Sequence record: NC_048186.1
DNA from: Escherichia phage vB_EcoM_KWBSE43-6
Reading direction: 5' to 3' (one strand)
Length of the DNA: 64,000 nt
Shown: in pieces, positions 3,936-36,162 of the stretch
Layout: each line of letters starts with the position of its first letter
Numbering within the stretch: the first letter of the stretch is position 1
The notes under the pieces: generated by a model
Seen by the model: only the letters and a program-made list of their open reading frames with translations
Databases searched by the model: none
What the model was told of the DNA's origin: nothing
Position numbers and translations under genes: made by a program

Positions 3936-3936
3936 C

Positions 3937-4173: not shown

Positions 4174-4174
4174 A

Positions 4175-4212: not shown

Positions 4213-4215
4213 CAA

Positions 4216-6795
4216 ATGGCCAGAAACATAGAAGAAATTTTCGGTGGGGTAGTCGTAGCACCACACCAGATCCCGTTCACGTACACTTCAACAAACGGTG
4301 GGGAAACTTTTATATCTCTGCCATTTTATCCCATCACCGGGTTCGTTACTATCAACGGTGGTGTACAGGTCCCTCTTGACAATTTCGAAATAGACGGAAA
4401 CACATTAAATCTTGGTCGAGAACTGGATCCAAGTGATGTTGTGTTCTGTTTGTTCGATAAAATCATGTCACCTCAAGATGCCAGTAACAACGCAGTTCGA
4501 GTTTATAAATTCATCTCTGTTGGAGGAGAAACGGAATTCACTCCAGATTTTACGGCGTATGGTGTCCAATCTCTTTATATCAATGGGAAATACCAAATAG
4601 CTGGTGAGGATTACACATATTCTAAGACAGATGGGAAAGTTTCTTTTACTACCCCATTAGTTACTGGAGTATGGGTTGCAGCTGAGATGAACATAAAGCA
4701 AAATATCCCCGCTTTAGCTGGCAATAATGGCGCATCACAAATCGGAACAGAATCAGGGCAAAATGTTCAATTAGAACTCGATTCATTCCGTAATTTGTTC
4801 GGGGAATATGGGTTTAGCATGATAGGGCAAACCACATATCAAGGATTGAGGAATTATAACGGCAATTCCAATTATATGATGATATATGGTAGATCCTATC
4901 TTCTAGATGGTGGTCATGGTATATTTGATTTAGTTCCTGGCGGTAATGCCATGACAACCCCTGACGATGATTGTGTGCATATTCGAGATACGTTGGGGCG
5001 GTTATGGCGTCGTAGATTTGAAGACAATGTCATAAGAATGAGCTGGGCGGGTGCTAAAAACCAATTAGAAACATCATCACCACAAGATGATGCTTTCAGG
5101 AACTGCCTGCTTGCGGCCAAATCGTTGTCTCCTACTGGTTATCCACAATCAATCATTAAAGGATTAGACCGTGGTGTAGTTTATCTTGCAGAGCGGCATT
5201 ATATCCGTTGTGGTAATTTCCCTGAATATATGGCGTGGAAATTGCCACCTACTGGTGGTGGTGACCGTTTTGGGCTGGATCTGCTGTGTGCATTGGGAGA
5301 AGGGGCGGGGTTCTTTATCGTCCAAGCTAATAACCCATTGTTGCGCGTCCGGGTAGACAACACTGGTATCCCATTCAATGTTTCGAATTATACTGATGCC
5401 CAACTTGTGAGTATAGTTGAGAACAATTATATCTTACGTTTGGAATCAATGGTGAACGCTCCGGAATTCGACGTTCATCCAGGTAATTATCCCGGTACTG
5501 TTCTTTACAGCACGGGTAAAAAGGATTATTCTGCAGTAACTGCACAATGGCCTGATTTGGTCCAAGTCTTACCGTCTATACAGAACGTCGGTAACGCGGT
5601 GTTTAACATAAAAAACTGTGGTCGAGATTTTATGTTAACCAATACTGGGGCTGGGTTGGGTCATTTTCATTCCGTTTGGTCACAAAATAACCGACTCCCT
5701 GGTTATATATCGAACTGCTATGATTTAACGATGACATATGAAGATTATGTCCCACACAACGAAACATCTGGTGGATTGATATTTAGTGAATGTGGCACTC
5801 TTTCTTTAGAAAATATTTTGATTGGCGCAGGTGGGGTAGGACATTTGTGTATATGGGATTGCCGTAACGTCCATATGAACCGTCATATCTCTATATGTGG
5901 TAATACCACTTGGGCTGCATCTAACCAAGTAGATGATCTTTATGCTTTAGAAATTTGTAACTCCGAAGTTCATATGAGCGGCGTGCATGCTCAAAACTCT
6001 GGTAAATTCGCACGTGTAGGATTCAATTCACAATTAACGGTTGATCACCTTACTGCATGGGATGTTTCAAAATTATTCTTGATGACGAATGATTTGACTA
6101 AATTGAAATATCGTGGGCAGCGGCAGGCTGTTACAGGGGACCCGAGCCGGATTTATGTGACATCAGGATTCGCTCAAAACCTTAACGCATCTCAGTTCGG
6201 TTGGGCTTGTGCTCCTGTAATAGAAATCGACAGCACAGTTAACGGTGATTTCAAATTTTATTGGAATTGCTGGACCAATAACGTTCATGCAGGGTATGGA
6301 TCTGAATCTGAAGCAAATCTTGCTATTATTAGCGTGGCTTCTACAAGTTCTACAGGATCTGTGTCATTCGGCGAAGACGCTAAATTGGAAGGTAATACGA
6401 CGAACTACGTCCTTCGTCTTGCAAACAAAAACCAATTGGGGAAAGTGCGCACTCGTCAAACATCTTTCTGTCGTGTACGTTATACCAATGACAACTCACA
6501 GTCATCTTTTGCAATGCGCGAAGCTGCTCATGACAATGGAACTACTGTGATCCCTATTGACGGAACAACATACAGCTATCCGTACCGCAGACCTGCTAAA
6601 TATTTCGTATCTTTAAACGTCCCTGCTGGTGGTGGTTCATGCTCAGTGACATTAAACGGTATGACGATTTTCCAAACTACGGTAGTCGGGACACATGGTA
6701 TAGTTATTGAAATGAAATACCAAGAAACCGTCGTGTTTACGTCATCCAACGTTACTGTATCGAATGCGCAGTGGCGTTATATTTTGGAGGAATAA
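4216..6795 (+). CDS. tail spike protein, 859 aa (TSP2-like), beta-helix
   Basis: ATG 4216 (track start 4189 is TTG inside the hairpin); same upstream architecture and tttcaaATGGC start context as 906 gene; beta-helix-like repeats in C-terminal half. Confidence 0.7.
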   Translation: MARNIEEIFGGVVVAPHQIPFTYTSTNGGETFISLPFYPITGFVTINGGVQVPLDNFEIDGNTLNLGRELDPSDVVFCLFDKIMSPQDASNNAVRVYKFISVGGETEFTPDFTAYGVQSLYINGKYQIAGEDYTYSKTDGKVSFTTPLVTGVWVAAEMNIKQNIPALAGNNGASQIGTESGQNVQLELDSFRNLFGEYGFSMIGQTTYQGLRNYNGNSNYMMIYGRSYLLDGGHGIFDLVPGGNAMTTPDDDCVHIRDTLGRLWRRRFEDNVIRMSWAGAKNQLETSSPQDDAFRNCLLAAKSLSPTGYPQSIIKGLDRGVVYLAERHYIRCGNFPEYMAWKLPPTGGGDRFGLDLLCALGEGAGFFIVQANNPLLRVRVDNTGIPFNVSNYTDAQLVSIVENNYILRLESMVNAPEFDVHPGNYPGTVLYSTGKKDYSAVTAQWPDLVQVLPSIQNVGNAVFNIKNCGRDFMLTNTGAGLGHFHSVWSQNNRLPGYISNCYDLTMTYEDYVPHNETSGGLIFSECGTLSLENILIGAGGVGHLCIWDCRNVHMNRHISICGNTTWAASNQVDDLYALEICNSEVHMSGVHAQNSGKFARVGFNSQLTVDHLTAWDVSKLFLMTNDLTKLKYRGQRQAVTGDPSRIYVTSGFAQNLNASQFGWACAPVIEIDSTVNGDFKFYWNCWTNNVHAGYGSESEANLAIISVASTSSTGSVSFGEDAKLEGNTTNYVLRLANKNQLGKVRTRQTSFCRVRYTNDNSQSSFAMREAAHDNGTTVIPIDGTTYSYPYRRPAKYFVSLNVPAGGGSCSVTLNGMTIFQTTVVGTHGIVIEMKYQETVVFTSSNVTVSNAQWRYILEE

Positions 6796-6797
6796 TA

Positions 6798-7097
6798 ATG
6801 ATTAAAGCAATCAAAGGGGATTTCACTGCTGTAACTTCAGTAGGAGAAATTTCATATCAATACGCTACTGTCCAGACTTTTCGGGGAGATGCAACGAGCG
6901 TGACCGTAGATGTATTTCTTTCCGATCGCTGGATTATCCAACGGGACGGGATCAATGTGGTAGATGATACTGCGCCTGGATTTTTCAAATCTGTACAGTT
7001 TGCTCCTGATTGGCAGAGCAGTTTGAATATCATAGATCAGGCTTATGAATATTTGAAAAGTCTTCCAGAGTTTTCAAATTCTACTGATGTTGTATAA
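6798..7097 (+). CDS. hypothetical protein, 99 aa
   Basis: ATG 6798 with GGAGG 8 nt upstream; overlaps end of preceding tail-spike gene. Confidence 0.5.
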   Translation: MIKAIKGDFTAVTSVGEISYQYATVQTFRGDATSVTVDVFLSDRWIIQRDGINVVDDTAPGFFKSVQFAPDWQSSLNIIDQAYEYLKSLPEFSNSTDVV

Positions 7098-7130
7098 AGT
7101 TAAGGGGGCTAGACCCCCTTAACTTATTTT
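7097..7130. terminator. bidirectional rho-independent terminator
   Basis: 12-bp perfect stem AAGTTAAGGGGG / CCCCCTTAACTT, loop ctaga, T-tract after; A-tract before serves the minus strand. Confidence 0.6.
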
Positions 7131-7372
7131 TCTATTTGTACAACAATCCCGTTTTCTTTTAAAACAGCTTCCAATTGCTCAATATGTAGCCTTAAATTTG
7201 AGTAGACGGTCGCTGCGATCAAAATTTCTTCACTTAATTTAACAGGTGAGTGAAGTGCGTCTATGTTAAAATTTCCTCCTGACGCAATAACTTTTCCATC
7301 TTCGTTAAATGTGTAGATGCAAGGATCTGGTTTATTTTTCTTAATCTTTATCAGTATTTCTTGTTTCCCCAT
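7124..7372 (-). CDS. hypothetical protein, 82 aa, opposite orientation inside tail-spike cluster
   Basis: ATG (minus) at 7370-7372 with GGAGA 9 nt upstream; stop lies in bidirectional terminator. Confidence 0.45.
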   Translation of the reverse strand: MGKQEILIKIKKNKPDPCIYTFNEDGKVIASGGNFNIDALHSPVKLSEEILIAATVYSNLRLHIEQLEAVLKENGIVVQIEK

Positions 7373-7442
7373 GATACATATCTCCAGCTGACTATGATTT
7401 GTACAAACATTGTACCCGAAACCGTTCGTTTGGAATAATACA

Positions 7443-7449
7443 CTAAATA
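7443..7449 (+). promoter_or_regulatory. late-promoter-like box CTAAATA
   Basis: CACTAAATACAAG 39 nt upstream of ATG 7488; same 13-mer context upstream of 9822 gene. Confidence 0.4.
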
Positions 7450-7487
7450 CAAGAATCAAGCCACAGAAAAACAACAGGAGATTCATC

Positions 7488-9491
7488 ATGAATCCGCAAT
7501 TTAGTCAGCCCGGTGGTTCCGTCTCTAAAGACGTGAACAAACAATCTATCGCACGTGTATTCTCTAAGAAAAAGAGTGATATATCATATTTGAAAGTTGG
7601 TTCTAGCGTTAATGGTTATGCTGTGCTATTCGAGCCGACAACCCAAACGTGTTGGTTTAGAGGGACTGCAACAGGTAATACAGTTTCTTGGACTATCAAC
7701 AATGATATCATGACTTTAGTGACTTCGGGTGGTTCCTTCACTCTGAACAAAGCCCAAGTTTGGGATTCTGTTACACTTTCCGGTGGAAATGCGACGAGTT
7801 TGATCGGAACACCTTCTGGTGGAACGTTAGCTAATCTGTTATTACGGACTGTGTCTCCTGCTGAATTCGGATTAGAAAACGATCCAACAGGAGTCAAAGC
7901 AGATAAAAATACCATGGCTGTTCAAAAGGCTATTCGTTACCTGAATTCTTTGGGTGGTGGACGTCTCTTGTTCCCTACTGGGCAATACACATTTTGCTAT
8001 GGAATTTGGTTGTTTGACAACATTCTGATCGATCTGAACGGTAGCATCTGTACTTTCAAAAACGCAACTTTTCCATTACGCAGTCGGGCATGTTTTGTTA
8101 TGGGTTCTTCTTATGAAGTCAACCGTGACAAGGCTATGAGTTTTTATGATGACGGCACCTACATCAACAACCCAAACCCGACCAATACAGCATATGTGAA
8201 TTTGCCGTTGGGAACGTTTTTGCGTGACAATGTCAATAAAGCGGAAATCAAAAACGCGCATATAATGAATGGGCATATCAAAGCCACGTTTGATTCCCCT
8301 ACTGCAAACGGTGCTTATGCAATAAATATGGCAAATGCGATGTATTGCACAGCACATGATTTATTCTTTACTGGATTCACAGAAGCCATAAACATGGGTT
8401 CGGATACTGGTTCTGAAACTCCGTCTTGCCATGGTTGTCTGGCTCATGATCTTTATATCGTTCAGCCTGACCAAAATAAAACTTATTATTCAATTGGTTT
8501 TATTTCAAACTCCACCAACTGTTCCATTCAACGGGCGATACAATATCTGCCTTGCGCCGCCGGGACAGAGAACGGGTCGGGTGTGGCTACTAACGTCGTT
8601 GAAGATTGTATTATAGAGGACATATTCATACCTTCTTTGGGTATTACGCAATCTTCTGAAGGGGTTCTTTTAAACAACGCAAAAGGATGTGTTGTGAGGA
8701 ACATTTGTGTCCGAAACTGTAAAGTGGTGGTGGCTGTTTATTATGTCAGCACCAGCTATATCAGTGCTGACAAATGGAATCATATTTCTGGCATAACTGG
8801 CCAAGGCACAGTTGCATTGATCGCAGTGCGCGGAAAATATACCACATTTACCGGATTCGCTGCGGATTCAACGACGCCGTATGAAATATATTTCGGGACT
8901 ACAAACGGATCTAACAACCGTATTGAACAAGAACCGGCTAGTATGTATTTCACAGAGACATCAACGGTCAAACAATATTGGTATTGCAATAACAACTACA
9001 TCAAAGGATGGGTCGTCAAATATCTGTATTTGCGGCCAATGAATACACTGGTGAATGACAAATCTGTTGCATTCAACTGGAACATGAACAAATCCGTGTC
9101 AGCCAACGATGACACCACGTTGTATTTCTTATGGGAAGTTCCTCCGTCCGTGAAGGCTATAAAGGCGGTCAAACTTTTCGCATATTACAATACCAACGCA
9201 GTGGCTAAAGGAAGTAATATCAAAATAGAAGTTCGTAGGATGATAGCGTTTGATGGTAACGCTAACACGTTGCCGTACATAGAACCTGCCATTGGTGCAA
9301 CTTCTACAGCAACGGTGGATCAACAGAATATAGCCATGAGCGCGGTTCATTCCGATACGGTTAGTCCCGGCATGGTAGTAACTGGCGATACTACGAATGG
9401 CCTGTCGAATAGTGTTGACATTTTGGTTACGTTTGCCAACACGTCCAAAAACTCTTTAATGAAAGAAATGGAAATTACATACCTGGGGTGA
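7488..9491 (+). CDS. tail spike protein, 667 aa, conserved N-terminal anchor module
   Basis: ATG 7488; N-terminus MNPQFSQPGGSVSKDVNKQSIARVF... shared with 9822 gene and resembling Ackermannviridae tail-spike N-termini; beta-helix-like C-terminal region. Confidence 0.75.
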   Translation: MNPQFSQPGGSVSKDVNKQSIARVFSKKKSDISYLKVGSSVNGYAVLFEPTTQTCWFRGTATGNTVSWTINNDIMTLVTSGGSFTLNKAQVWDSVTLSGGNATSLIGTPSGGTLANLLLRTVSPAEFGLENDPTGVKADKNTMAVQKAIRYLNSLGGGRLLFPTGQYTFCYGIWLFDNILIDLNGSICTFKNATFPLRSRACFVMGSSYEVNRDKAMSFYDDGTYINNPNPTNTAYVNLPLGTFLRDNVNKAEIKNAHIMNGHIKATFDSPTANGAYAINMANAMYCTAHDLFFTGFTEAINMGSDTGSETPSCHGCLAHDLYIVQPDQNKTYYSIGFISNSTNCSIQRAIQYLPCAAGTENGSGVATNVVEDCIIEDIFIPSLGITQSSEGVLLNNAKGCVVRNICVRNCKVVVAVYYVSTSYISADKWNHISGITGQGTVALIAVRGKYTTFTGFAADSTTPYEIYFGTTNGSNNRIEQEPASMYFTETSTVKQYWYCNNNYIKGWVVKYLYLRPMNTLVNDKSVAFNWNMNKSVSANDDTTLYFLWEVPPSVKAIKAVKLFAYYNTNAVAKGSNIKIEVRRMIAFDGNANTLPYIEPAIGATSTATVDQQNIAMSAVHSDTVSPGMVVTGDTTNGLSNSVDILVTFANTSKNSLMKEMEITYLG

Positions 9492-9494
9492 TTT

Positions 9495-9740
9495 ATGCAA
9501 AATTCGGCTATGCGTGATGCGTTATCTCTATTTTATGCTTTATACGACTATTTGGTAAACAAAGTGGAATTGACAGAAACAGAAGAATCTGTCAAATCTA
9601 AAATAGAACAAGATATGGGGATACGTTGTGATGATTCATTGGATGAGCAAATCCTACAACTGCAATCAGAACTAAACCAAGCAGTTGAAGAGGGAGAACG
9701 TCACCAAATCTTAGATAATGTGGTTGAACTTTTGAAATAA
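9495..9740 (+). CDS. hypothetical protein, 81 aa, acidic
   Basis: ATG 9495 four nt after upstream stop; terminator follows. Confidence 0.5.
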   Translation: MQNSAMRDALSLFYALYDYLVNKVELTETEESVKSKIEQDMGIRCDDSLDEQILQLQSELNQAVEEGERHQILDNVVELLK

Positions 9741-9742
9741 CA

Positions 9743-9767
9743 AAGCCCCTTCGGGGGCTTTTCTTTT
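9743..9767 (+). terminator. rho-independent terminator
   Basis: AAGCCCC ttcg GGGGCTT followed by TTCTTTT. Confidence 0.6.
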
Positions 9768-9774
9768 GAACAAA

Positions 9775-9781
9775 CTAAATA
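9775..9781 (+). promoter_or_regulatory. late-promoter-like box CTAAATA
   Basis: AACTAAATACAAGGAG 41 nt upstream of ATG 9822. Confidence 0.4.
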
Positions 9782-9821
9782 CAAGGAGACATTGTTAGAA
9801 AAACAACATGAGGAACCACCC

Positions 9822-12098
9822 ATGAAAACGCAATTTAACCAATCACAAGGCTCAACTTCACGTGAGACGAATAAAGAAGCGATTGCTCGCATCTTTGGTC
9901 TCAAGAAGTCTCAAGTCGGATATCTGTCAACAACCACTCCAATTGATTCGTATGTCATATTGTTTGACAAAGAAACTCAGACGTGTTGGTATCGAGGTAC
10001 AGCAACAGGTACTCCAATTTCTTGGAATGTCAATGGTGAATCATTATCTTTGACAACTAATTCTGGAACTTCTATATTAACTAAATCTAAACCATGGGAT
10101 GAATTGAATCAAAAACTATCATCACCACAAGGATTTGGTGCGATAGGCAAATTTTCTTCTTTGATTAATTTAAGAAATCATGAACCCACATACCCTGGCG
10201 AATCTGTGATTTTAGAAAGAATAGCGTCTGGGAAACCGACAGTTAACGTAGTGCTAAGGCATGATCCTACTGATACCACGTCTGTGGATGACGACATAAG
10301 CATATTTGTTACACCTGGTGGTGCTCGTTGGAAATTGGATATTAGTGATGGTTATGATATGAGACTGGCAGGGGTTAATGTTGATGGTACAAACTTTTCC
10401 TCTGCTTTAAATAAAATAGTCAGTGTCATTATTTCAAAAATAGTAGCTAATGGGCGGGTAAATAATGTTGCTCGTCGCATAAAAGTTGTCCCGACAAATT
10501 TTTTATGTCAATTCTTTTTAACTGATCCTGTTGATTTACCATCAATCGTGTCATGTTCTTTTTATGGGTCACCATTCATAGAATCACAAAACATGACGGG
10601 ACTCTATTCTTTCAGAATAGCCAACCAACCGTTCAGCACGTTGACCAAGGCTATGATGCAAGCAGAAACTTCGTGGCCTAATGGCCCGTTAAACCAAGTT
10701 ATCGGGAATAAAGTTATAAATTCAGGGGATGGCGGGAGAATAACTTTAAGGGGACCCGGATTTTCAGATGGTGTCCCAAGGATAGGTGTTATATTAGGTA
10801 ATGATGTGACCACAGATAAAGACGTGAGGGATTGTAGCGTAGAAGATATGAATATCTTCGGCTTCGACGCTTCTCATACGTTGGGTGGCTATTTTACCTT
10901 TATGGCAGGCTTCCGGAATTGTAACTTCTCGCGTTGTAATGTTGGTATGCGATTACCAAATATCACTGGAAACGCTGGGGAAAGAATGTGGTATGATTCT
11001 TGCACTTTTGGTAACATGACAAGCCATGCATTACACGTATTTGGGGCTGGTACGTATAGCTTGGTCAACACTTCCATAGACTTCATAGGCGGGGATATGT
11101 TCCATTATGGATCTGATTCTTCTGTGTCTATAGAATTTATTTCAGGCCATATAGAAGGTATACAAGGGTATGATGCCGCGAAAGATACTCCGACGAACTA
11201 TTCTCAGGCCAGGGTTCATATCCATTCTGCCGTTCTGAGAGATCCGAGACAAGGAAGCGGCCAATACAGGGGTATAAGGCAACGTTGGTCTTGCCCTTCT
11301 TCTTCATTTGGGCAAGGACTTTCCGTAATAGACGAATCTATTTCCCCCGGAATGGAGAATACAAAACCGAACACTGCATATCCGTGCTTTATGGGTAGTC
11401 CAAGTAATACTGGTGTTTACATAGAAACCCCGCGAACTGCTAACCGGGGAACGCCGTGGTTGAACAGCTATAGTGATTCTTGTTCCAAGAGAATAAATCC
11501 GACATATTTCTTTATAACTTCGGCGGGTACTGGGGAGTTAGGTCAGAGTCAATTAGTGTTGGATTATAACTTTTCATACACCAAAACTGGGGATGGAATA
11601 GTAGAATATGGTGTAGTCGGTGACGCGGATGCAGATGGATTTATACCGTTCAAGATTACTTGTAATGATGTCAATACAGTCATTAATTTGTTCTGTAATA
11701 ACCGATCTAAAGCCACCAACGGAAACAAGCCTTTATGGGGAGCTTGCTCAGTTAAATTGGCGAATTCCGTGGGTGATGTCATGATCGCTCCACTTAGGGC
11801 AACATATTTAGGTTCTACTATCACGTCGATATATAATGACACCACGAAGACGGTAACAAGTACGTTAAATCCTGTTCTTCGTTCAACAAACGTGGGAGTT
11901 GCTCTTAACCTTAGAGATCTGTTGAACGGAAGCGGACTAACAACTAATGACTATCAGGCGACTTATCCTCGATATGTTACTGGTTACTACCAGGGCAATG
12001 ATTTCTTTGTCCCCGGTTTCCGCCTTTGGAATTTCACAGGAACCATATATTTGAAATTGCCTATTTGGTGGTTCGAAGGTGATAACTTTGGAGCATAA
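9822..12098 (+). CDS. tail spike protein, 758 aa, conserved N-terminal anchor module
   Basis: ATG 9822 (GAGGA 8 nt upstream); N-terminus MKTQFNQSQGSTSRETNKEAIARIFG... homologous to 7488 gene; divergent C-terminal receptor-binding/depolymerase region. Confidence 0.75.
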   Translation: MKTQFNQSQGSTSRETNKEAIARIFGLKKSQVGYLSTTTPIDSYVILFDKETQTCWYRGTATGTPISWNVNGESLSLTTNSGTSILTKSKPWDELNQKLSSPQGFGAIGKFSSLINLRNHEPTYPGESVILERIASGKPTVNVVLRHDPTDTTSVDDDISIFVTPGGARWKLDISDGYDMRLAGVNVDGTNFSSALNKIVSVIISKIVANGRVNNVARRIKVVPTNFLCQFFLTDPVDLPSIVSCSFYGSPFIESQNMTGLYSFRIANQPFSTLTKAMMQAETSWPNGPLNQVIGNKVINSGDGGRITLRGPGFSDGVPRIGVILGNDVTTDKDVRDCSVEDMNIFGFDASHTLGGYFTFMAGFRNCNFSRCNVGMRLPNITGNAGERMWYDSCTFGNMTSHALHVFGAGTYSLVNTSIDFIGGDMFHYGSDSSVSIEFISGHIEGIQGYDAAKDTPTNYSQARVHIHSAVLRDPRQGSGQYRGIRQRWSCPSSSFGQGLSVIDESISPGMENTKPNTAYPCFMGSPSNTGVYIETPRTANRGTPWLNSYSDSCSKRINPTYFFITSAGTGELGQSQLVLDYNFSYTKTGDGIVEYGVVGDADADGFIPFKITCNDVNTVINLFCNNRSKATNGNKPLWGACSVKLANSVGDVMIAPLRATYLGSTITSIYNDTTKTVTSTLNPVLRSTNVGVALNLRDLLNGSGLTTNDYQATYPRYVTGYYQGNDFFVPGFRLWNFTGTIYLKLPIWWFEGDNFGA

Positions 12099-12099
12099 T

Positions 12100-12354
12100 A
12101 TGTATACCATACATAAAATTCCTTGTGACATAGTCTACAATTCTTTGTTAGAGCATCATAAGTTTTTCATATCTTTAAAGAAAGATTTGGCAAAGCGTAT
12201 TAAGAATTCTACGTCAGGATTCAAATATGAAAATTTCAAATTTTGTTATGACAAAGATGATGTAAATCAATATTATCTAAAATTAGATTCAAAATGTCGT
12301 GACTTTGAAACCCAATTAAACGAAATTTGGTTTCATTCAGTACACCAACAATGA
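12100..12354 (+). CDS. hypothetical protein, 84 aa
   Basis: ATG 12100 immediately after tail-spike stop; AT-rich. Confidence 0.45.
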   Translation: MYTIHKIPCDIVYNSLLEHHKFFISLKKDLAKRIKNSTSGFKYENFKFCYDKDDVNQYYLKLDSKCRDFETQLNEIWFHSVHQQ

Positions 12355-20567: not shown

Positions 20568-21254
20568 ATGTCTAATATGTCGGAACGTTTGTTACAGACC
20601 TTAGATGCTGTCTCAGCACGAGATGAGGTTGCTCAAGATGCGATGAAGAAAACCGCATTGAAGCCCGGTGTTGATTATGATGAAGAAACGGGGGAGTGGT
20701 TAGGTGATCCCCCGGAAGGGTATCAAGGATTCGAGATGCCACCATCATTGTCTGAAGTCGCATCAAAAGAATCAAAAGTTCCTGAATACGAGGACACTGA
20801 CGCCACGACTGACTACAAACGTATTCGTGACACCACATATGCTATGCAAGAAGCCACGATGTTCATGATGGGCAAGGCCGCTGAACTCGCCGCTTCTACA
20901 GAGGCTCCTCGTGCATTCAGCGTCTTCCGCGAGCTGGGTGAACTCATGCGTGGTCTCAATAAAGACTTGATGGAAAACCAGAAAACCATCAAGGATGTTA
21001 CTCGCGACAAAGAACCGCCGGGACAGACCACCGTTGAGGTTTCTGAAGATGAAAATGGAACGACTACAGTCAAAGTCGGTAAGACTGCTCGTTCGTCCAG
21101 AGATCTTCTCCAGATGATTGAGAAAGTTCGACGTGATGCCGAAGCCAATCGAAATTCTCGCGTCAACCCCGATGAAGAAGTAATTGACGTCGCGGAAGAA
21201 CCAAAACAGGAAGATAAGTCAGAGGGCGAGGACAATGGCGTATCCGAAGCGTGA
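20568..21254 (+). CDS. gp16: terminase small subunit gp16
   Basis: ATG 20568; central region MFMMGKAAELAASTEAPRAFSVFRELGELMRGLNKDLMENQKTIKDVT resembles T4 gp16; directly upstream of large terminase. Confidence 0.75.
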   Translation: MSNMSERLLQTLDAVSARDEVAQDAMKKTALKPGVDYDEETGEWLGDPPEGYQGFEMPPSLSEVASKESKVPEYEDTDATTDYKRIRDTTYAMQEATMFMMGKAAELAASTEAPRAFSVFRELGELMRGLNKDLMENQKTIKDVTRDKEPPGQTTVEVSEDENGTTTVKVGKTARSSRDLLQMIEKVRRDAEANRNSRVNPDEEVIDVAEEPKQEDKSEGEDNGVSEA

Positions 21255-23445
21255 AGTCGAATATGCCCCGGTCAAGACGGGGTTTAAAATTGAAGACGTC
21301 AAATTGCGTATGGACCAAACGTTCATGCGCAAGCCGACTGTGCGTGCTCCTCGTGTTGAATTAGTCCTTACTGATGAGCAAGAAGATGAATATGTCAAGT
21401 GTGCCATGGACGCACACTATTTCGCTGCGAACTATTACAAGATCACCACTATCGACCACGGCTTCATCTTGTTCGATATGCATGATTATCAGAAGCAATT
21501 GTTCCATGATTTCCAGGATCATCGATTCAATGCTGTCGTACAGGCTCGTCAGTCTGGTAAATGTGTTCGGGGCGACTCTGAAGTTTATGTTTACGATACT
21601 CTCAGCCAGGAAGAGTTCTCTATCACCATAGAGGAGCTTCACAGCCGCTTCGAGGACGTTAACCATGCAGAGCCGTTGAATACCATTGGCAAACACAATA
21701 AGTTCGTAGATAGCCGCTTCGGCAAACGATACTTTGTGAAGTCTGATAGTGGTTGGGTTCCTGTAATAGCAGCACACAAGACAAAAGAATATGCAGAATA
21801 TGTGGTAAAAACTGAAAGTGGTCGGACGATTCATGTCGCGGACGAACATCTATTCTTTAATGAATATAATAGTGAGGTTTTCGCCAAAGATCTGGAAGCC
21901 GGGGATGCCATCATGACGCAAGATGGCCTTGAATGTATTTCTGAAATTTGGGAAACCGGCGAATCTCACCACATGTTTGACCTCCAGGTGAAATCATCTG
22001 AGCAGCGTTATTACACCAATGGGTTCCTGAGCCATAATACGACAGTGGTGGCGGCATTTCTCCTCTGGTACGCGATGTTCAACTCTGACAAAGAGATCGC
22101 GGTTCTTGCGAACAAAGAGAAACAGGCTATTGAAATCCTGGATCGTATTCGTAAAGCATATCAGGACATGCCATTCTTCGTCCAGCAAGGTTGTGAGAAA
22201 TTTGGTTCAACCCTGATTGAATTCGAGAACGGTTCGAAGATCTTTGCATACGCGACTTCCTCGGACTCCATCCGTGGTCGTTCTGTATCTCTCCTGTATG
22301 TGGACGAAGTCGCATTCATCGAAAACGACTTTGAATTCTGGGAATCAACTTTCCCGGCGATCGCCCAGGCAGAGACTTCGAAGTGTATCCTCACCAGTAC
22401 ACCAAAAGGTCAGCGCGGGCTGTTTTACGACATCGTCACGAAGGCGAACCCAGAACATCCTCAATACAACGACTTCAATCTTACGGAAGTTCCTTGGTAC
22501 AGGGTTCCGGCGTACACCAAAGACCCGAATTGGGAATCCAAACAACGTGCCAAACTTGGCGACGCTCGTTTCGATCAGGAATTCGGTATCAAGTTCCGTG
22601 GTTCTGTCGGTTCATTAATACCGTCGAAATGTCTGGACAAGATGACATCCAAGTTGTATCAGGAGCCGAATGAGTTCACCAAAATCTACAAACCCTTTGA
22701 CAAAACCAGAACATATTTTGGTATTGCGGATACAGGCAAAGGGGTTGAGGGGGACTACTCTGTGCTGACCATATTGGACATCACGGAATATCCTCATACG
22801 ATTGCAGCCAAATACCGGAACAACACGATACCGCCGATGATGTATGCATACACGATTGCCGATATGTGTACTCAATACGGTGAATGCCCTGTGCTTGTAG
22901 AGACCAACAATGATGTTGGTGGCCAGGTGATCACAATCCTGTATCAAGAAATTGAATATCCGGAAATCGTGTTTACATCAACGGACAATAAGGGTACTGG
23001 TAAGAAGATCGGCGGTCGTCGTCCTGAACCAGGGATCAACACCAACAAGAAAGTTCGCTCTATCGGTTGTGCTAACCTGAAAGCACTTATCGAAAGAGAG
23101 ATGTTGGTAATCGAAGACCAGGATACGATTGATGAACTGAGTACGTTCGTGTTTACTGGGACCCGCTATGAGGCCGATCAGGGTTGTCATGACGACTGCG
23201 TTATGCCACTTGTTTTATATTCATGGGCTGTAAAACAGGAATGGTTCAGTGATTTAACTGATACCAGCATTTCTCGAGATATGCGCGGTCGTATGAATGC
23301 GATGGAGCAACACCAAGTCCTCCCGTTTGGGGGCAAATTTACTGGTGATACCCCTCATGAAGTACAGCATATGCCGGGCTTTGGGGGTGTGAATGTATTT
23401 GATGAACGTTCTGGGATGTCAATGGAAGAGTGGTTCAAGAACTGA
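21235..23445 (+). CDS. gp17: terminase large subunit gp17, intein-containing precursor
   Basis: ATG 21235; extein sequence reconstitutes Walker A QARQSGK-TTVVAAFLL (T4: SRQLGKTTVVAIF); downstream ATPase and nuclease regions match T4 gp17. Confidence 0.9.
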   Translation: MAYPKREVEYAPVKTGFKIEDVKLRMDQTFMRKPTVRAPRVELVLTDEQEDEYVKCAMDAHYFAANYYKITTIDHGFILFDMHDYQKQLFHDFQDHRFNAVVQARQSGKCVRGDSEVYVYDTLSQEEFSITIEELHSRFEDVNHAEPLNTIGKHNKFVDSRFGKRYFVKSDSGWVPVIAAHKTKEYAEYVVKTESGRTIHVADEHLFFNEYNSEVFAKDLEAGDAIMTQDGLECISEIWETGESHHMFDLQVKSSEQRYYTNGFLSHNTTVVAAFLLWYAMFNSDKEIAVLANKEKQAIEILDRIRKAYQDMPFFVQQGCEKFGSTLIEFENGSKIFAYATSSDSIRGRSVSLLYVDEVAFIENDFEFWESTFPAIAQAETSKCILTSTPKGQRGLFYDIVTKANPEHPQYNDFNLTEVPWYRVPAYTKDPNWESKQRAKLGDARFDQEFGIKFRGSVGSLIPSKCLDKMTSKLYQEPNEFTKIYKPFDKTRTYFGIADTGKGVEGDYSVLTILDITEYPHTIAAKYRNNTIPPMMYAYTIADMCTQYGECPVLVETNNDVGGQVITILYQEIEYPEIVFTSTDNKGTGKKIGGRRPEPGINTNKKVRSIGCANLKALIEREMLVIEDQDTIDELSTFVFTGTRYEADQGCHDDCVMPLVLYSWAVKQEWFSDLTDTSISRDMRGRMNAMEQHQVLPFGGKFTGDTPHEVQHMPGFGGVNVFDERSGMSMEEWFKN
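21562..22038 (+). mobile_element. mini-intein (159 aa) inserted in terminase Walker A P-loop
   Basis: Begins Cys (TGT 21562), ends His-Asn (AAT 22036-22038), +1 residue Thr; block A CVRGDSEVYV and block F/G FDLQV...NGFLSHN recognisable; no homing endonuclease domain. Confidence 0.8.
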
Positions 23446-25393: not shown

Positions 25394-25399
25394 GACACC

Positions 25400-25423
25400 A
25401 AACCCCGCTTCGGCGGGGTTTTA
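25400..25423 (+). terminator. rho-independent terminator
   Basis: AAACCCCGC ttcg GCGGGGTTT. Confidence 0.6.
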
Positions 25424-25461
25424 CTTCGGGGTAAATAATATCGGCAACCCGGAGATTTGAA

Positions 25462-25917
25462 ATGATATTTGCATACAAAATTGAAATGATATCTAACAAC
25501 AAGGTCTACATCGGTGTGACCAATGATCCGCAAAGGCGATATGAGCAACATTTGGCCAATGCATTTCAATATAATGTTGAAAGTGAATTGTATGATGCCA
25601 TGCGCAAATATGGGGCTTCCGCTTTTACTTTCGTGATTATTGCTCAAACCGATGAAGTCCACAAATGGGAATTGGAAAAGCAATTAATTGCTCAATACGA
25701 TTCTTATGAATTGGGCTACAACATGAATAAAGGCGGTAACGATGGAAGTCATCTGGTTGGTAAAGCTGCTGCTAAATTGACCTCCACTGGAGAACATATT
25801 GGTATGGTCTCATTAATTGATCCACGTTGGGATCTCTGTGAGATTGAACCAGTACGGAACAATGTTGATCATGGCTTTGATCTCAGTAAATTGACGATCA
25901 AAAGATTAACAGACTAA
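25462..25917 (+). CDS. GIY-YIG endonuclease (free-standing homing endonuclease-like), 151 aa
   Basis: YKIEMISNNKVYIGVTNDPQRRYEQH aligns with I-TevI GIY-YIG catalytic core; conserved R, E and N (GYNMNKGG) present; inserted between sheath and tube genes. Confidence 0.8.
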   Translation: MIFAYKIEMISNNKVYIGVTNDPQRRYEQHLANAFQYNVESELYDAMRKYGASAFTFVIIAQTDEVHKWELEKQLIAQYDSYELGYNMNKGGNDGSHLVGKAAAKLTSTGEHIGMVSLIDPRWDLCEIEPVRNNVDHGFDLSKLTIKRLTD

Positions 25918-25951
25918 TTAGAATTGTGTAACTCTTTTTGGAGAATGTATA

Positions 25952-31764: not shown

Positions 31765-31784
31765 TCGGACAGCTGATCTGAATC

Positions 31785-31812
31785 AAACCCCGCCATGTGC
31801 GGGGTTTTTCTT
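31785..31812 (+). terminator. rho-independent terminator (sequence repeated at 49594)
   Basis: AAACCCCGC catgt GCGGGGTTT TTCTTT. Confidence 0.65.
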
Positions 31813-31863
31813 TATACACCCTCAGTGTTATTATATTATGGTCTATCACTGAGGAAACAAAAC

Positions 31864-32109
31864 ATGAATCTGTCAGGAGCAGCAATTGATGTTCTATACC
31901 AACTTTTCTGGTTTGGGCCAAGAGAAGCTGGTGAAATTCCGTCTAAATCTGGTGAGTTGGAATTGTTGTCTAAAGGGTTGTGCGAAAGATTAGATCTGGT
32001 TTCTACACCCAAAGGCAAAGATACTCATCTCTGCGTTTTGACTCCAAATGGTTACATCCAATCCCGCGCTCTTTTCTTCCATTCCAACAAACAGGAAATC
32101 AAATCATGA
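31864..32109 (+). CDS. hypothetical protein, 81 aa
   Basis: ATG 31864 after GAGGA; SD lies in right arm of inverted repeat CCTCAGTG/CACTGAGG. Confidence 0.5.
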   Translation: MNLSGAAIDVLYQLFWFGPREAGEIPSKSGELELLSKGLCERLDLVSTPKGKDTHLCVLTPNGYIQSRALFFHSNKQEIKS

Positions 32110-32426
32110 GTATTCAATTAACCATTTCTTCCCTGATCCCAGCGTTCGGCAGCAATCTGGAACAAATCACTTACATCCGTAATCGGCTGGAAGATGTGGC
32201 GTTCCAATTGGGGTATGTGGAACCTCCTCGGGAAGTAAAAGAAGCGGAGGATGCTGCGGCACCTTCCAACCTCATCGATGCGTATGATGAAATCGGGCGT
32301 AAAACGAACGTTGTCATACAGCAAATTTTTGAATATATCGGGTTTATAGAAAACGCGCTGGGGAATTCTTACCACCCCCAGTCTGATTCGGTTAAGGAAA
32401 TTGTTCCAACATCTAATGGTATTTAA
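32106..32426 (+). CDS. hypothetical protein, 106 aa
   Basis: ATGA overlap with upstream stop. Confidence 0.55.
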   Translation: MSIQLTISSLIPAFGSNLEQITYIRNRLEDVAFQLGYVEPPREVKEAEDAAAPSNLIDAYDEIGRKTNVVIQQIFEYIGFIENALGNSYHPQSDSVKEIVPTSNGI

Positions 32427-32464
32427 AGAGAGGGCGCAGTCGCGCCCTTTTATTTGGGGGTTTT

Positions 32465-32713
32465 ATGTACTCAAATATTTCAAACTCTGAAGCCCTGTCT
32501 TTGGCTAAACGATACCATTGCTTCAAGTCCCGCGCCGGGCATTCCTGGGATAAAAAGGCGTGGATCAAGCAATTACAGATACAAATAGAGATAATGGAAT
32601 CTCTATCCACTCAGTGCGGAAATAACCCATTCGCTGCCCGTTGTCTTGAACAAGAGTATGCAACTCTTAAAATGCAACTGAACACTGCGATGTCACACGT
32701 TTTGCACTCTTAA
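32465..32713 (+). CDS. hypothetical protein, 82 aa
   Basis: ATG 32465 after hairpin GGGCGC agtc GCGCCC. Confidence 0.5.
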   Translation: MYSNISNSEALSLAKRYHCFKSRAGHSWDKKAWIKQLQIQIEIMESLSTQCGNNPFAARCLEQEYATLKMQLNTAMSHVLHS

Positions 32714-32742
32714 CTTTTCAATAAACAGATTTCAATTATTAT
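32714..32742 (+). promoter_or_regulatory. early-promoter-like element (-35 CTTTTC, 17 bp, -10 TATTAT)
   Basis: -35 immediately followed by AATAAAC; 30 nt upstream of ATG 32772. Confidence 0.35.
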
Positions 32743-32771
32743 TCACCCACAATCTAAACGAGGAACAACTG

Positions 32772-32978
32772 ATGGCCCGCGAAGACAATTCACAGATTTC
32801 TACCAACGCCAACTCAACCTTCAATGAGTGGCACAACACCCTTGAGCGCGTAGCACGTTCTCAAGGTGGTTCAGCTGCTGACGCCGATGCCTGGCGTGAA
32901 GATTATGACAATGGCAAGACTCCGCGCCAGGCATGGGAAGACGAATGGGGATGGGAAGATGCAGACACTAATTCGTAA
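32772..32978 (+). CDS. hypothetical protein, 68 aa
   Basis: ATG 32772 with GAGGAA upstream. Confidence 0.45.
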   Translation: MAREDNSQISTNANSTFNEWHNTLERVARSQGGSAADADAWREDYDNGKTPRQAWEDEWGWEDADTNS

Positions 32979-33189
32979 AATCTTTCTGGATAAAAAGGGG
33001 ATGGAATCAAAGGTCGAAATCATCACGACTCAAAAATTGTTTGAGAAAGGTGAAACTCGATACTATCTTAATGTGTTCCTTTACCTTCCAGAATGCAGCC
33101 TGAACCGCGATATTACCCAACCGGATGGAACTGTGGTCCGTTGGGAAATAGCCAAACAGGAAGATGTTGAAAAAGACATATCACTTTGA
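32959..33189 (+). CDS. hypothetical protein, 76 aa
   Basis: First in-frame ATG giving minimal overlap with upstream gene. Confidence 0.4.
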   Translation: MQTLIRKIFLDKKGMESKVEIITTQKLFEKGETRYYLNVFLYLPECSLNRDITQPDGTVVRWEIAKQEDVEKDISL

Positions 33190-33204
33190 AGCGAGATCTA
33201 TATC

Positions 33205-33642
33205 ATGACAAATAAATTCATTTTTCTGGACGTTCGCGGTAAACGATTCTTCAAAACCGATCTGGACGAAAAGACAGAAGGGTTCCAGGGGCGATTATCA
33301 TATTTGTTGCCGACAGGCGATATCGACACCCAAAGATATGTGGCGGATGTACGGGATCTCCTGGATTGTGGTTGGGTTGAAATTCCTAACCCCCAGGTGT
33401 TGACCGTCAACCTGTATTACATGAAGGAAAGTGGGAAGTATTATTCCAATGGAGAACTCCACCTCCTTCGTTCTGAAGTCACTGCCGATCCAGCCAAGAG
33501 TTGGTACAATGCTAGAGAAACCGTCCGGAAGATGGTTGATGAAGGCAATTTGCCTGGCCTGGTATCCGGTTCTCGTTACGATGTGTTCATGTCCTGTGAA
33601 GAGCACCCGTGTTATGTGCCCACTTTGGTGAAGGTGAAATGA
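33205..33642 (+). CDS. hypothetical protein, 145 aa
   Basis: ATG 33205. Confidence 0.55.
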   Translation: MTNKFIFLDVRGKRFFKTDLDEKTEGFQGRLSYLLPTGDIDTQRYVADVRDLLDCGWVEIPNPQVLTVNLYYMKESGKYYSNGELHLLRSEVTADPAKSWYNARETVRKMVDEGNLPGLVSGSRYDVFMSCEEHPCYVPTLVKVK

Positions 33643-34022
33643 TGGAACTCTTAACTGTTGGTGACGTTTTCGAATTGACGCCGGATATGAAAATCGGCAC
33701 AAATGTCCCTAATCATTTCCTGTATTCAAATCGAGTAGGTGATTGGACGCTTTCTCATGGGAGCGTATATCCAGAAGGCGTGTTTGATTATATGCTTGGG
33801 AATTATGTGGTCACCAAAACTGCCAAAGACGGCGGTGGTACTGGTCATGGCCCAGGCGACGTCTATCCCGACGGGCATCACGTTTGGGCGCAGAATGTGG
33901 ACAACGAGAATATCGTAATTGATTTCTATCAGACTGGTTGTTTCACTAATATGCATCGTAATGTGTCCGTCATCGGAAAAGCAAAGGCTCAGAAATGGTC
34001 TTGGGAACGTTTAGATGGGTAG
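33639..34022 (+). CDS. hypothetical protein, 127 aa
   Basis: ATGA overlap with upstream stop. Confidence 0.55.
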   Translation: MMELLTVGDVFELTPDMKIGTNVPNHFLYSNRVGDWTLSHGSVYPEGVFDYMLGNYVVTKTAKDGGGTGHGPGDVYPDGHHVWAQNVDNENIVIDFYQTGCFTNMHRNVSVIGKAKAQKWSWERLDG

Positions 34023-34179
34023 ATCCCTCGTTTCTCATCATTACCGTGACCTCATAAAGCGTCTGGAGCGCAAAGGTATCTTTGAGGGAATGGATAAAGA
34101 AAAGGTGAAGGTCTTGAAAGAAGAAATTCATGAAGCCATTAAAGACACTTCTCGTTCCACATATTTCAAAACTTTATAG
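34015..34179 (+). CDS. small protein, 54 aa
   Basis: ATG 34015 overlapping upstream stop; not in ORF track; weak SD. Confidence 0.3.
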   Translation: MGRSLVSHHYRDLIKRLERKGIFEGMDKEKVKVLKEEIHEAIKDTSRSTYFKTL

Positions 34180-34189
34180 GCTATAACAA

Positions 34190-34630
34190 ATGAAAACTCT
34201 CGAACAAATTTTAGAAGGTCATAAAACAGGAACTTTGTCAGCGGCTTTAGACGGTCGTGACCTGGTTCGCCTGTCTCAGTTTTTGACAGTTGAGCAAATT
34301 GAAAGTCTGGGATTGTCTTTCGAATCTTCTGAAAAACGTGAATCCCATGTCCCGGTTGAATTCACCAAAGAAAATATCCTGAAACAACTGGAAAAGGACG
34401 TCGCCTTTGGGTTTGAAAAGGCTCTGAATCGTCGTGGGATTAGTTCTAGCCTTATGTACGAAGTCGTACAAATGTGGAACTGTATCCTTGAAGAAGGTCT
34501 CGAAGATTTTGATTCGTATGCGATGTACGGCCTTCCTCTGTTTAAAGCAACTGCTGTCAAATACGGGTTTGACAACCCAATCGGTGATGACACAGGTGCC
34601 GAAGATCATTATGAAGAGCAGGGCTATTAA
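34190..34630 (+). CDS. hypothetical protein, 146 aa
   Basis: ATG 34190. Confidence 0.55.
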   Translation: MKTLEQILEGHKTGTLSAALDGRDLVRLSQFLTVEQIESLGLSFESSEKRESHVPVEFTKENILKQLEKDVAFGFEKALNRRGISSSLMYEVVQMWNCILEEGLEDFDSYAMYGLPLFKATAVKYGFDNPIGDDTGAEDHYEEQGY

Positions 34631-34631
34631 T

Positions 34632-34868
34632 ATGCGTATCAAAAAGATCGGATCCAGCCCGCTGACTGGTACTATCTTCTACGGCACCCTGGAAACCAAA
34701 ACCAGCATGTGGGTAGGGGATAAAATTGATGTCACCGAAGAGTGTGTCGCAGCGACGGCTGAGCATATGCGTCATATCAAGAAAGACTACTGCTACAAAA
34801 CGCCTGATGGAAAATATCTGGTGTTGTCTGCTGAAGTCCACGATACTCTTCCGGACAGATTCAAATAA
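34632..34868 (+). CDS. hypothetical protein, 78 aa
   Basis: ATG 34632 two nt after upstream stop. Confidence 0.5.
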   Translation: MRIKKIGSSPLTGTIFYGTLETKTSMWVGDKIDVTEECVAATAEHMRHIKKDYCYKTPDGKYLVLSAEVHDTLPDRFK

Positions 34869-34891
34869 TTTAAAAATATTCAATAAACGGG

Positions 34892-34920
34892 GTTTACTTC
34901 TTCAATAAACCCCGTATACT
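34892..34920 (+). promoter_or_regulatory. early-promoter-like element (-35 GTTTAC, 17 bp, -10 TATACT)
   Basis: Matches T4 early promoter pattern as remembered; contains 17-mer TTTACTTCTTCAATAAA also found at 52830. Confidence 0.4.
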
Positions 34921-34969
34921 TCATTTCATAAGCAGTACGACACCAACTCTGAAATGAAGGAACTATATC

Positions 34970-35392
34970 ATGATCACTCCCAACATCACCGCCTATGCGT
35001 TTGACGACTTCGCCAATTTTGATTCATTCATCAAGAAATTTGGTGTGAATTCCGTCGAAGCCAAGCAATTGTATGGTTCCGATCGTCTGAGCAAAACCGC
35101 CCAGATCAAAGCTACGTTGGAAGAACTGATTGAGTCCTTGGGTGAATCCTTCCGCGCCAAAATCTATAAGAAGGACGGTGGCCTGCGCCAACTGAAAGGC
35201 AAGACTGTCATTCATGAGGCTGATCAATTTACCGTATCTATGCATTTCACGTTCAAGCCTGAATATGAACTTTTTTCCAACGGCGAGGATTCCACCCATT
35301 ACGTCATAGCCAAAGGTAGCAATCGCCCAGTATTTGAATCCGGTGATATCATGGCAGCAATCAATGAAATGGAACGCCTGAATAAAGCATAA
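34970..35392 (+). CDS. hypothetical protein, 140 aa
   Basis: ATG 34970 with GAAGGA upstream. Confidence 0.55.
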   Translation: MITPNITAYAFDDFANFDSFIKKFGVNSVEAKQLYGSDRLSKTAQIKATLEELIESLGESFRAKIYKKDGGLRQLKGKTVIHEADQFTVSMHFTFKPEYELFSNGEDSTHYVIAKGSNRPVFESGDIMAAINEMERLNKA

Positions 35393-35421
35393 CTATTCAA
35401 TAGTCACTATCGGGGTATGAT
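35393..35421 (+). promoter_or_regulatory. early-promoter-like element (-35 CTATTC, 17 bp, -10 TATGAT)
   Basis: TTCAATA-N9-GGGGTATGAT shared with 47033 and 53390. Confidence 0.35.
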
Positions 35422-35461
35422 AAACTTCGTACCCTACACAAATTGATGAGGTCTATATATC

Positions 35462-35722
35462 ATGGCTTGTGCGTCATCTATTCCGAAAATGCTTATCCTG
35501 AAATGGTATGAGCACAGTATTTATGCTCGCATCAAATCAGCTGCGAAAGAGGGTCGAAAAACGATCGAATTATTCCGTCCTTGCGCATCCTCCAAAGCGC
35601 ATCGCGATACATTCGTCTTACTGCGTGAATTGGAACGACTCGGCATCAAAATCGAACCTATGCCATGCAGTAACCCGATGGTCAATCTCTTCGTTCTGAG
35701 CAATTTTGAGAATTTGGAATGA
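35462..35722 (+). CDS. hypothetical protein, 86 aa
   Basis: ATG 35462. Confidence 0.5.
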   Translation: MACASSIPKMLILKWYEHSIYARIKSAAKEGRKTIELFRPCASSKAHRDTFVLLRELERLGIKIEPMPCSNPMVNLFVLSNFENLE

Positions 35723-36162
35723 ATACGATTATCCTCATAACTGGTTCGCGTTCTATTACGGAGCGCGACAAAATCTTTGAAAAGTTAGACGAACTTTCTC
35801 ATACAGATTCCGTTTGTAATCTGTATCATCCGTGCGATACCCTATTGATCGCTGGGGAGGCTGTCGGCGTCGATACGATCTGCAAAGATTGGGCTGAATC
35901 CAGAGGGGTGACTTATCTCGGGATGCCTATCCCCGATGAATACTTCGCTACATATGGGAAAGGGGCTGGAAACAAACGCAACCAGGACATGTTAGACAAG
36001 GCGTTGGAGTTATCACAGAAATACAAGGCGGAGATACTGCCTCTGGCTTTCTGGGACGGTTCATCGACTGGTACGCAGGATATGATCAAACGAATCAACA
36101 AAGCAGGGTTGCATTGTAAGGTCATGCTCTTGGGTAAGCCAAAAACCAAACGCCTTCTGTAA
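35719..36162 (+). CDS. SLOG-like (YpsA/DUF2493-type) Rossmann-fold protein, 147 aa
   Basis: N-terminal ILITGSRS strand-loop, central IAGEAVGVD glycine loop, C-terminal WDGSSTGT; pattern recalled from SLOG family. Confidence 0.45.
   Translation: MNTIILITGSRSITERDKIFEKLDELSHTDSVCNLYHPCDTLLIAGEAVGVDTICKDWAESRGVTYLGMPIPDEYFATYGKGAGNKRNQDMLDKALELSQKYKAEILPLAFWDGSSTGTQDMIKRINKAGLHCKVMLLGKPKTKRLL

Follow-up and report, generated by a model that had tools for sequence, protein, structure and literature searches.

A probable class 1 mini-intein in the ATP-binding loop of the large terminase of Escherichia phage vB_EcoM_KWBSE43-6 and its relatives in the Ackermannviridae

The large terminase gene (terL) of Escherichia phage vB_EcoM_KWBSE43-6 (NC_048186.1) raises the question of what 159 additional codons are doing inside the ATP-binding loop of a DNA-packaging enzyme. 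We analyzed a 64,000-nucleotide (nt) stretch of this genome, here called the window, and the coordinates given below count from the first letter of that whole stretch and not from the feature itself. An earlier, sequence-only reading of the window had proposed that the insert is a mini-intein on whose splicing DNA packaging would depend. Our analysis indicates that the insert is very probably a bona fide class 1 mini-intein at the 'classic' P-loop Lys/Thr site of a T4-type large terminase (TerL), and we infer from its position that splicing would be needed for packaging. Although the sequence-only reading treated the element as a discovery, this intein is already known, having been annotated and published for orthologous phages.

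The insert comprises 477 nt, or 159 codons, lies in frame between the Lys and the Thr of the Walker A motif (QARQSGK/TTVV), and has the boundaries ascribed to it in the earlier reading, starting with Cys (TGT), ending with His-Asn (CAT-AAT) and being followed by Thr (ACG) (Table 1). The splice flanks read ...DHRFNAVVQARQSGK / TTVVAAFLLWYAMFN. Removal of the insert was said to recreate the Walker A motif of T4 gp17, which we confirmed: the joined exteins (577 amino acids, aa) read ...QARQSGK-TTVVAAFLLWY... and align colinearly with T4 gp17 (PDB 3ezk; expectation value, E, 2.2e-76). The Walker A motifs stand in register, with 'arqsgkttvvaafl' over 'sRQlGKTTVVAiFL' of T4 gp17 and no gap at the junction, and the T4 motif itself is uninterrupted at the insert position. 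Pfam assigned Terminase_6N to TerL (E 5e-17), together with a sub-threshold hint of Terminase_6C (E 2e-4, 21.8 bits against a gathering score of 22.6).

At the DNA level, the terL region is 96-98% identical to that of Klebsiella phages of the Ackermannviridae, genus Taipeivirus (phi1_175010, Magnus, 0507-KN2-1 and Menlow), and the window is Taipeivirus-like. The frame reported for terL by the open reading frame (ORF) finder runs from 21184 to 23445 (753 codons) with an upstream TTG start, and the likely true start is the ATG at 21235, as in the deposited Magnus and 0507-KN2-1 coding sequences (CDSs); from this start, the gene shares its first 20 nt with the end of terS. Counted from this ATG, the precursor consists of an N-extein of 109 aa, the intein of 159 aa (residues 110-268) and a C-extein of 468 aa.

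Apart from the canonical Thr of block B, the residues expected of a class 1 intein are present, and the call of a mini-intein is upheld by Cys1, the block B His, the block F Asp, the terminal His-Asn, Thr+1, the predicted HINT fold and precise empty sites in relatives. Blocks A (CVRGDSEVYV), F and G (FDLQV...NGFLSHN) were found as previously quoted. Because a word-indexed protein search with the intein returned only two matches, too few to align, an exhaustive HMMER search was used instead, in which phmmer against 1.84 billion representatives gave 368 matches at E<=1e-10, well outside what chance would produce. In the resulting family alignment (n=61 sequences), G64, T74, A93, H96, M138, D140, H158 and N159 are invariant. 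Each of the 28 contiguous family members that were retained begins with Cys1, after RQxGK or xGxGK, one putative Ser-start member having been left out of this set as suspicious, and the +1 residue is Thr or Ser in nearly all family members.

Profile and structure comparisons pointed in the same direction. The insert scored 27.6 bits with TIGR01445 (intein N-terminal splicing region, intein_Nterm), above the curated cut-off of 24.5. Searched against the PDB, the single intein sequence matched the gp41-1, Cdc21, VidaL and CatC inteins, and a profile of the 61 family members matched VidaL (1.3e-13), gp41-1 (2.6e-12) and CatC, the consensus atypical TerL intein (6dsl; 9.8e-11). An AlphaFold2 model built from the family alignment (predicted local distance difference test, pLDDT, 92.8; predicted template-modelling score, pTM, 0.86) showed one compact beta-rich domain with one short helix (residues 23-29) and one disordered loop (residues 36-43). 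Among the Foldseek matches listed against the PDB, 50 of 50 were inteins, bacterial intein-like (BIL) domains or Hedgehog HINT domains, all with E < 5e-6, and the first was VidaL (E 1.4e-10, template-modelling scores 0.76/0.83); in the model, therefore, the insert has a HINT fold. Pfam detected no endonuclease domain (LAGLIDADG, HNH or other) and no other extra domain in the insert, and its size of 159 aa, inside the mini-intein range of about 130-200 aa, and single-domain model leave no room for an endonuclease, in agreement with the sequence-only reading. Two further ORFs in the intein DNA, an antisense 162-aa ORF (21361-21849) and an 85-aa ORF in another plus frame, were considered as hidden genes and rejected, as neither had a Pfam match.

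Relatives with an uninterrupted gene show where the insert begins and ends. Using a 153-aa probe spanning the spliced junction, we obtained one uninterrupted 459-nt match of 85.6% identity in Erwinia phage phiEa2809 (Ackermannviridae, Nezavisimistyvirus) and matches of about 66% identity, also in one piece, in Vibrio phages D508 and K474, whereas the Klebsiella, Salmonella and Serratia relatives matched in two pieces. The proteins align as QARQSGK-TTVVAAFLLWY in phiEa2809 and QCRQSGK-TTVVAAFLLWY in D508, with the window insert exactly between K and T. In DNA, 67 of the 90 nucleotides flanking the insert (45 on each side) are identical to the uninterrupted phiEa2809 site; MAFFT misplaced the 477-nt gap in this comparison of occupied and empty DNA, and an in-register hand alignment was used. 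With the phiEa2809 site as probe, a single 300-nt piece was found, among the matches listed, only in the Erwinia phages phiEa2809 and Bue1. The other matches listed (36 of 36) fell into two pieces spanning 772-773 nt, equal to 295 + 477 nt, in phages of Dickeya, Serratia, Enterobacter, Salmonella, Shigella, Escherichia and Yersinia. The intein at >=60% identity was found in 277 records and the extein probe at >=80% in 275, two counts that agree, and Vibrio Ackermannviridae phage SD25 carries a diverged 179-aa intein (39% identity) at the same site. Judged from this distribution, the insert is an insertion nearly fixed in the enterobacterial branch of the Ackermannviridae. The reading of the segment as an ordinary terminase domain, which the earlier note had named as its potential refutation, was rejected on the strength of the precise empty sites found within the family (phiEa2809, Bue1 and Vibrio phages such as D508), in addition to the uninterrupted motif of T4.

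Some points weigh against the identification as an active intein. The second intein profile compared, PF14890 (Pfam Intein_splicing), gave E 2.4e-8 and 34.4 bits, just below its gathering score of 35.8. In block B, the His of the TxxH motif is present and invariant, and the position at which most inteins have Thr is taken by Ala93, which is invariant in the family; we regard this as a weak objection, because the Ala is family-wide and is shared by the functional VidaL intein, which reads C-A-F-N-H at block B. No splicing experiment for the window intein or its Ackermannviridae orthologues was found in the literature searched. Selection, which speaks for a functional intein, was estimated by the Nei-Gojobori method among six orthologues (the window, Magnus, CBA120, SFP10, Dickeya phage PP35 and Serratia phage phiMAM1), giving for the intein a ratio of non-synonymous to synonymous divergence (dN/dS) of 0.02-0.10 where dS was computable, a value to be taken as semi-quantitative since dS is saturated in many pairs. 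In dN, the intein exceeds the exteins by a factor of about 2-3. On these rates the insert is clearly under purifying selection and not decaying, and such selection on an intein is expected because failed splicing would kill an essential enzyme.

In the mechanism that we propose, TerL would be translated as an 84.6-kDa precursor in which the ATP-binding loop is physically interrupted. Since the insert parts the Walker A Lys from the next Thr, the precursor should be without a functional P-loop, and packaging should thus depend on splicing. Excision would follow the standard class 1 pathway, in which an N-S acyl shift at Cys1, assisted by the block B His96, would be followed by trans-esterification of the N-extein onto the Thr+1 side chain. 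Cyclization of Asn159, aided by His158 and the block F Asp140, would then release the 18.4-kDa intein, and an O-N shift would yield a normal peptide bond, leaving a 66.2-kDa TerL (577 aa) with an intact QARQSGKTTVV Walker A motif. The intein, which has no homing endonuclease, would be a selfish passenger. It would stay functional because any mutant unable to splice would knock out an essential gene, and it was probably passed on essentially vertically among the enterobacterial Ackermannviridae, recombination replacing the allele now and then.

One such replacement can be read from two phages of the genus Kuttervirus. The CBA120 and SFP10 loci are colinear, with flanks 99-100% identical and extein proteins 100% identical, and their inteins differ at 131 of 477 nt (27%). 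The divergence (terL nt ~324-1320) starts sharply at intein codon 1 and fades over ~515 nt in which all C-extein differences are synonymous. By this comparison, the patch is a replacement of the intein allele by recombination or gene conversion.

Whether anything nearby could mobilize the intein depends on the endonuclease genes of the region. The free-standing GIY-YIG gene that the sequence-only reading had placed 3.4 kb downstream does exist, beginning 3424 nt past the intein end. Its product matches Pfam GIY-YIG (PF01541) at 37.9 bits, above the cut-off of 22.6, and TIGR01453 at 49.2 bits, below the cut-off of 56.05; the motif reads F-A-Y-x10-Y-I-G and then R-R, and the gene is labelled homing endonuclease in many relatives. 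The order around terL is T4-like, with neck genes, a gp15-like gene, terS, terL, tail sheath, the GIY-YIG gene, tail tube and portal. In the slot between the tail sheath and tail tube genes, Magnus has the same GIY-YIG gene and an extra 100-aa ORF, Menlow a 56%-identical allele and Dickeya phage PP35 a different 596-aa 'homing endonuclease' gene on the opposite strand, and the slot is empty in phiEa2809. Across these genomes, the intergenic slot is a landing site, or hot spot, for free-standing endonuclease genes whose presence is sporadic. PP35 further carries a 292-aa NUMOD3 putative homing-endonuclease gene between terS and terL, directly upstream of the gene with the intein (comparison locus L011, 609-1487), a position at which the window has no such gene, terS and terL overlapping there. 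We considered whether the GIY-YIG gene and the intein are functionally connected and rejected this, keeping it only as an idea of low probability: their distributions are decoupled and they lie 3.4 kb apart, and because of this decoupling we see no specific link between the two in the window.

It could still be imagined that the TerL mini-intein is exchanged among Ackermannviridae by a trans-acting free-standing homing endonuclease ('collaborative homing') and was perhaps also co-opted as a splicing-dependent packaging timer, a speculation that we consider unlikely. Most members of the intein family appear split, and split inteins have been linked to free-standing endonuclease genes. The proposal that the mini-intein is itself not an immobile relic but still mobile through a free-standing endonuclease acting in trans, such as the product of the nearby GIY-YIG gene, would accommodate the Kuttervirus allele swap, with its co-converted tract of ~515 nt on the 3' side, and the many free-standing endonuclease genes of the terL module. 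However, the GIY-YIG gene is distant from the intein and distributed independently of it, Dickeya phages possess the intein together with different endonuclease genes in the GIY-YIG slot, CBA120 and SFP10 do not differ by any endonuclease-gene indel at their loci, and ordinary homologous recombination during co-infection would account for the patch just as well; we therefore hold this form of mobility to be quite improbable.

A second possibility is that the intein has been domesticated, so that splicing, tuned for instance by temperature, by a binding partner or by the redox state of Cys1, delays or gates terminase activity until late infection and the intein acts as a post-translational regulator instead of a neutral passenger. 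This would agree with its uniform length of 477 nt and seeming fixation in almost all enterobacterial members of the Ackermannviridae and with strong purifying selection along the whole intein domain, and regulatory inteins in P-loop ATPases have been discussed (PMC5050341). Nevertheless, a selfish endonuclease-less intein in an essential gene predicts fixation and purifying selection equally, the phages phiEa2809, Bue1 and those of the Vibrio D508 type manage without an intein, and no sequence feature specific to conditional splicing was found in the insert, so that a regulatory role appears distinctly unlikely. The remaining alternative, a degenerate HINT-derived insertion that no longer splices and serves as an extra domain of mature TerL or is capable only of cleavage, could appeal to the missing canonical Thr of block B and the marginal Pfam score but is highly improbable, given that unspliced TerL would have no functional P-loop, that all nucleophiles and catalytic residues are kept and invariant, that dN/dS is so low, that active VidaL has the same block B Ala (PMC13014065) and that cleavage without ligation would part the two ATPase halves.

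A selfish class 1 mini-intein that splices in cis thus remains our preferred reading, with a case nearly as strong as computational evidence allows, and the features of the locus are collected in Table 1.

Table 1 Features of the terL locus and of the neighbouring endonuclease slot. Positions are those of the window unless a comparison locus (L) is named.
Feature	Position	Strand	Remarks
TerL (T4 gp17-like) precursor gene	21235..23445	+	736 aa, 84.6 kDa; same start and length in the Magnus and 0507-KN2-1 CDSs
N-extein, 109 aa	21235..21561	+	ends with the first half of Walker A, ...QARQSGK
Probable class 1 mini-intein, 159 aa, 18.4 kDa, without endonuclease domain	21562..22038	+	profiles, fold, empty sites
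Cys1 (TGT), predicted N-terminal nucleophile, block A CVRGDSEVYV	21562..21564	+	
Disordered loop, intein residues 36-43 (AEPLNTIG), after helix alpha1 (residues 23-29)	21667..21690	+	pLDDT < 50 only here
Block B, A93-D-E-H96	21838..21849	+	His invariant; Ala in place of canonical Thr
Block F, Asp140 (MFDLQV)	21979..21981	+	
Block G, His158-Asn159 (CAT-AAT), predicted C-terminal splice junction	22033..22038	+	
Thr+1 (ACG), first C-extein residue	22039..22041	+	
C-extein, 468 aa	22039..23442	+	Thr+1 first (= Walker A Thr); rest of ATPase and nuclease domain
Free-standing GIY-YIG homing-endonuclease gene, 151 aa	25462..25917	+	flanked by the tail sheath and tail tube genes; an element separate from the intein
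Sheath-tube slot	window 25394-25951; L001 8833-9731; L013 1565-3671; L002 9558-9634		

Other parts of the window were also inspected. When the complete window was scanned with Rfam, no family reached its gathering score. ARAGORN called a tRNA-Thr(GGT) of 91 nt on the minus strand (47534-47624), antisense inside a 678-aa ORF (47124-49160), which is probably a false positive because no tRNA passed the Rfam gathering score at this place. In the interval from the major capsid gene to a YspA/SLOG-like gene (35719-36162), the window has ~950 nt more than 0507-KN2-1 (~31765-35718); no nuclease domain was detected in this excess region, where the only Pfam match was an ORF with DUF7446 at 34434-34868. 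Modular exchange of receptor-binding proteins is known in Ackermannviridae, and the tail-spike/tail-fibre ORFs of 1009, 868, 693 and 768 aa in window positions 1-12100, whose sizes differ in 0507-KN2-1, fit such exchange.

The wider intein family was surveyed in 152 retrieved proteins, namely the best 150 representatives of the exhaustive search and the two matches of the word-indexed search. In 97 of the 152, only intein residues ~46-159 are matched, with the match beginning within the first 25 residues of the protein; all but one of these (96/97) are Met-initiated, and SHN followed by T/S and then the second half of the P-loop comes after the match. The 28 retained contiguous members are 150-223 aa long and mostly follow RQxGK. 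In metagenomes, most of the family thus seems to be split where the window intein has its disordered loop, although truncated gene calls could add to this count. Some family members reside in P-loop proteins other than TerL, with C-exteins such as TLIAKKLAEE and TNVGKTLF.

Direct support at the DNA level came from two cultured phages, in each of which an intein of this family at the TerL Walker A motif is interrupted. In Delftia phage PhiW-14 (comparison locus L004, ~1900-2900), the intein in the TerL Walker A motif has two in-frame stops after ~50 residues, and the Met restart past these stops is the annotated start of gp17. Agrobacterium phage Atu_ph07 (L007, 1983-4174) has two adjacent CDSs in different frames, both labelled 'terminase large subunit', of which the first ends ...RQLGK/SVHKSTD...LVR* and the second reads MVNKMNIF...LSHN/TTVAAAYLLW. 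From their gene layout, both look like naturally and atypically split TerL inteins that have not been annotated as such.

As a discovery the window intein is minor, phage TerL inteins being well documented, also at the Walker A Lys/Thr site. For annotators and for expression of Ackermannviridae TerL, its consequence would be that the mature protein has 577 aa and not 736 aa. The residual novelty lies in splicing and its possible regulation in a medically relevant phage family, and in the allele change of an endonuclease-less intein in Kuttervirus. The window intein is also mesophilic (enteric) and contiguous, unlike its relatives AceL/GOS-TerL and VidaL, which as split inteins are used in protein engineering. 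Since its sole disordered loop lies at the natural split position of these relatives, atypical split inteins working at 37 degC could perhaps be engineered on it as a scaffold.

Comparison with known systems begins with the orthologues. We consider the element already known because it is annotated in Magnus, has been reported for Marshall and occupies a site that has been described as classic. In Klebsiella phage Magnus (MN045230), the gene is deposited as 'terminase large subunit precursor' with two kinds of mat_peptide, one joined and one named 'intein', the latter corresponding exactly to 21562-22038, and the genome announcement of 2019 mentions an intein in the large terminase gene (PMC6763660). 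For Salmonella phage Marshall, the intein had been described in 2013 (PMC3853055), and NCBI holds a stand-alone 159-aa 'intein' protein of Maynard/Marshall (YP_008772116). These inteins share the gene, the Lys/Thr site and the length of 159 aa with that of the window, are 98.7% (Magnus) and 84% (Maynard/Marshall) identical to it, and differ by strain-level substitutions only. Many deposited relatives carry no intein annotation and are labelled 'terminase large subunit', 'hypothetical protein' or 'pretoxin HINT domain protein'.

Among mycobacteriophage TerL inteins, Kelley et al. (2016) described the P-loop Lys/Thr position as the 'classic' site and found that five spliced efficiently in reporters (PMC5050341). 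The TerL1-a inteins of that study resemble the window intein in interrupting a large terminase right after the invariant Walker A Lys and before the nucleophilic Thr, and the same argument was made for them, namely that splicing is needed for ATPase activity and pentamer assembly (PMC5050341). They differ in belonging to another intein lineage and to terminases of the Terminase_1 family, whereas the window protein is of the T4-type Terminase_6 family; some inteins of the study have active endonuclease domains, and the window intein has none.

At the level of the intein family, the nearest characterized relatives are split inteins derived from phages. VidaL (6vgv) and gp41-1 (6qaz) are the best sequence and structure matches and are compact HINT domains without an endonuclease, like the window intein, but they are naturally split and only ~19% identical to it. 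The PDB molecule names give no host proteins for these two; we take the host of gp41-1 to be a gp41-type helicase and that of VidaL a metagenomic phage protein. VidaL has been described as a fast trans-splicing intein (PMC13014065), and AceL-TerL and GOS-TerL as naturally split terminase inteins with a short N-terminal fragment, Int-N (PMC11766414; PMC13014065). The atypically split AceL-, GOS- and Cat-TerL inteins, from metagenomic T4-like phage terminases, share with the window intein the TerL host protein and the intein sequence family. The S2 split site of AceL/GOS-TerL, after helix alpha1 (PMC13014065), corresponds to the only disordered loop of the window intein. In contrast, these inteins are split and act by trans-splicing with an Int-N of 25-37 aa, whereas that of the window, being contiguous, would undergo cis-splicing. 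In block B, CatC has S-D-N-H against A-D-E-H in the window, and the nucleophiles are Ser1/Cys+1 in GOS-TerL (PMC11766414) against Cys1/Thr+1. The window intein is related to the phage inteins AceL/GOS-TerL, VidaL and gp41-1, from which it is set apart by being contiguous.

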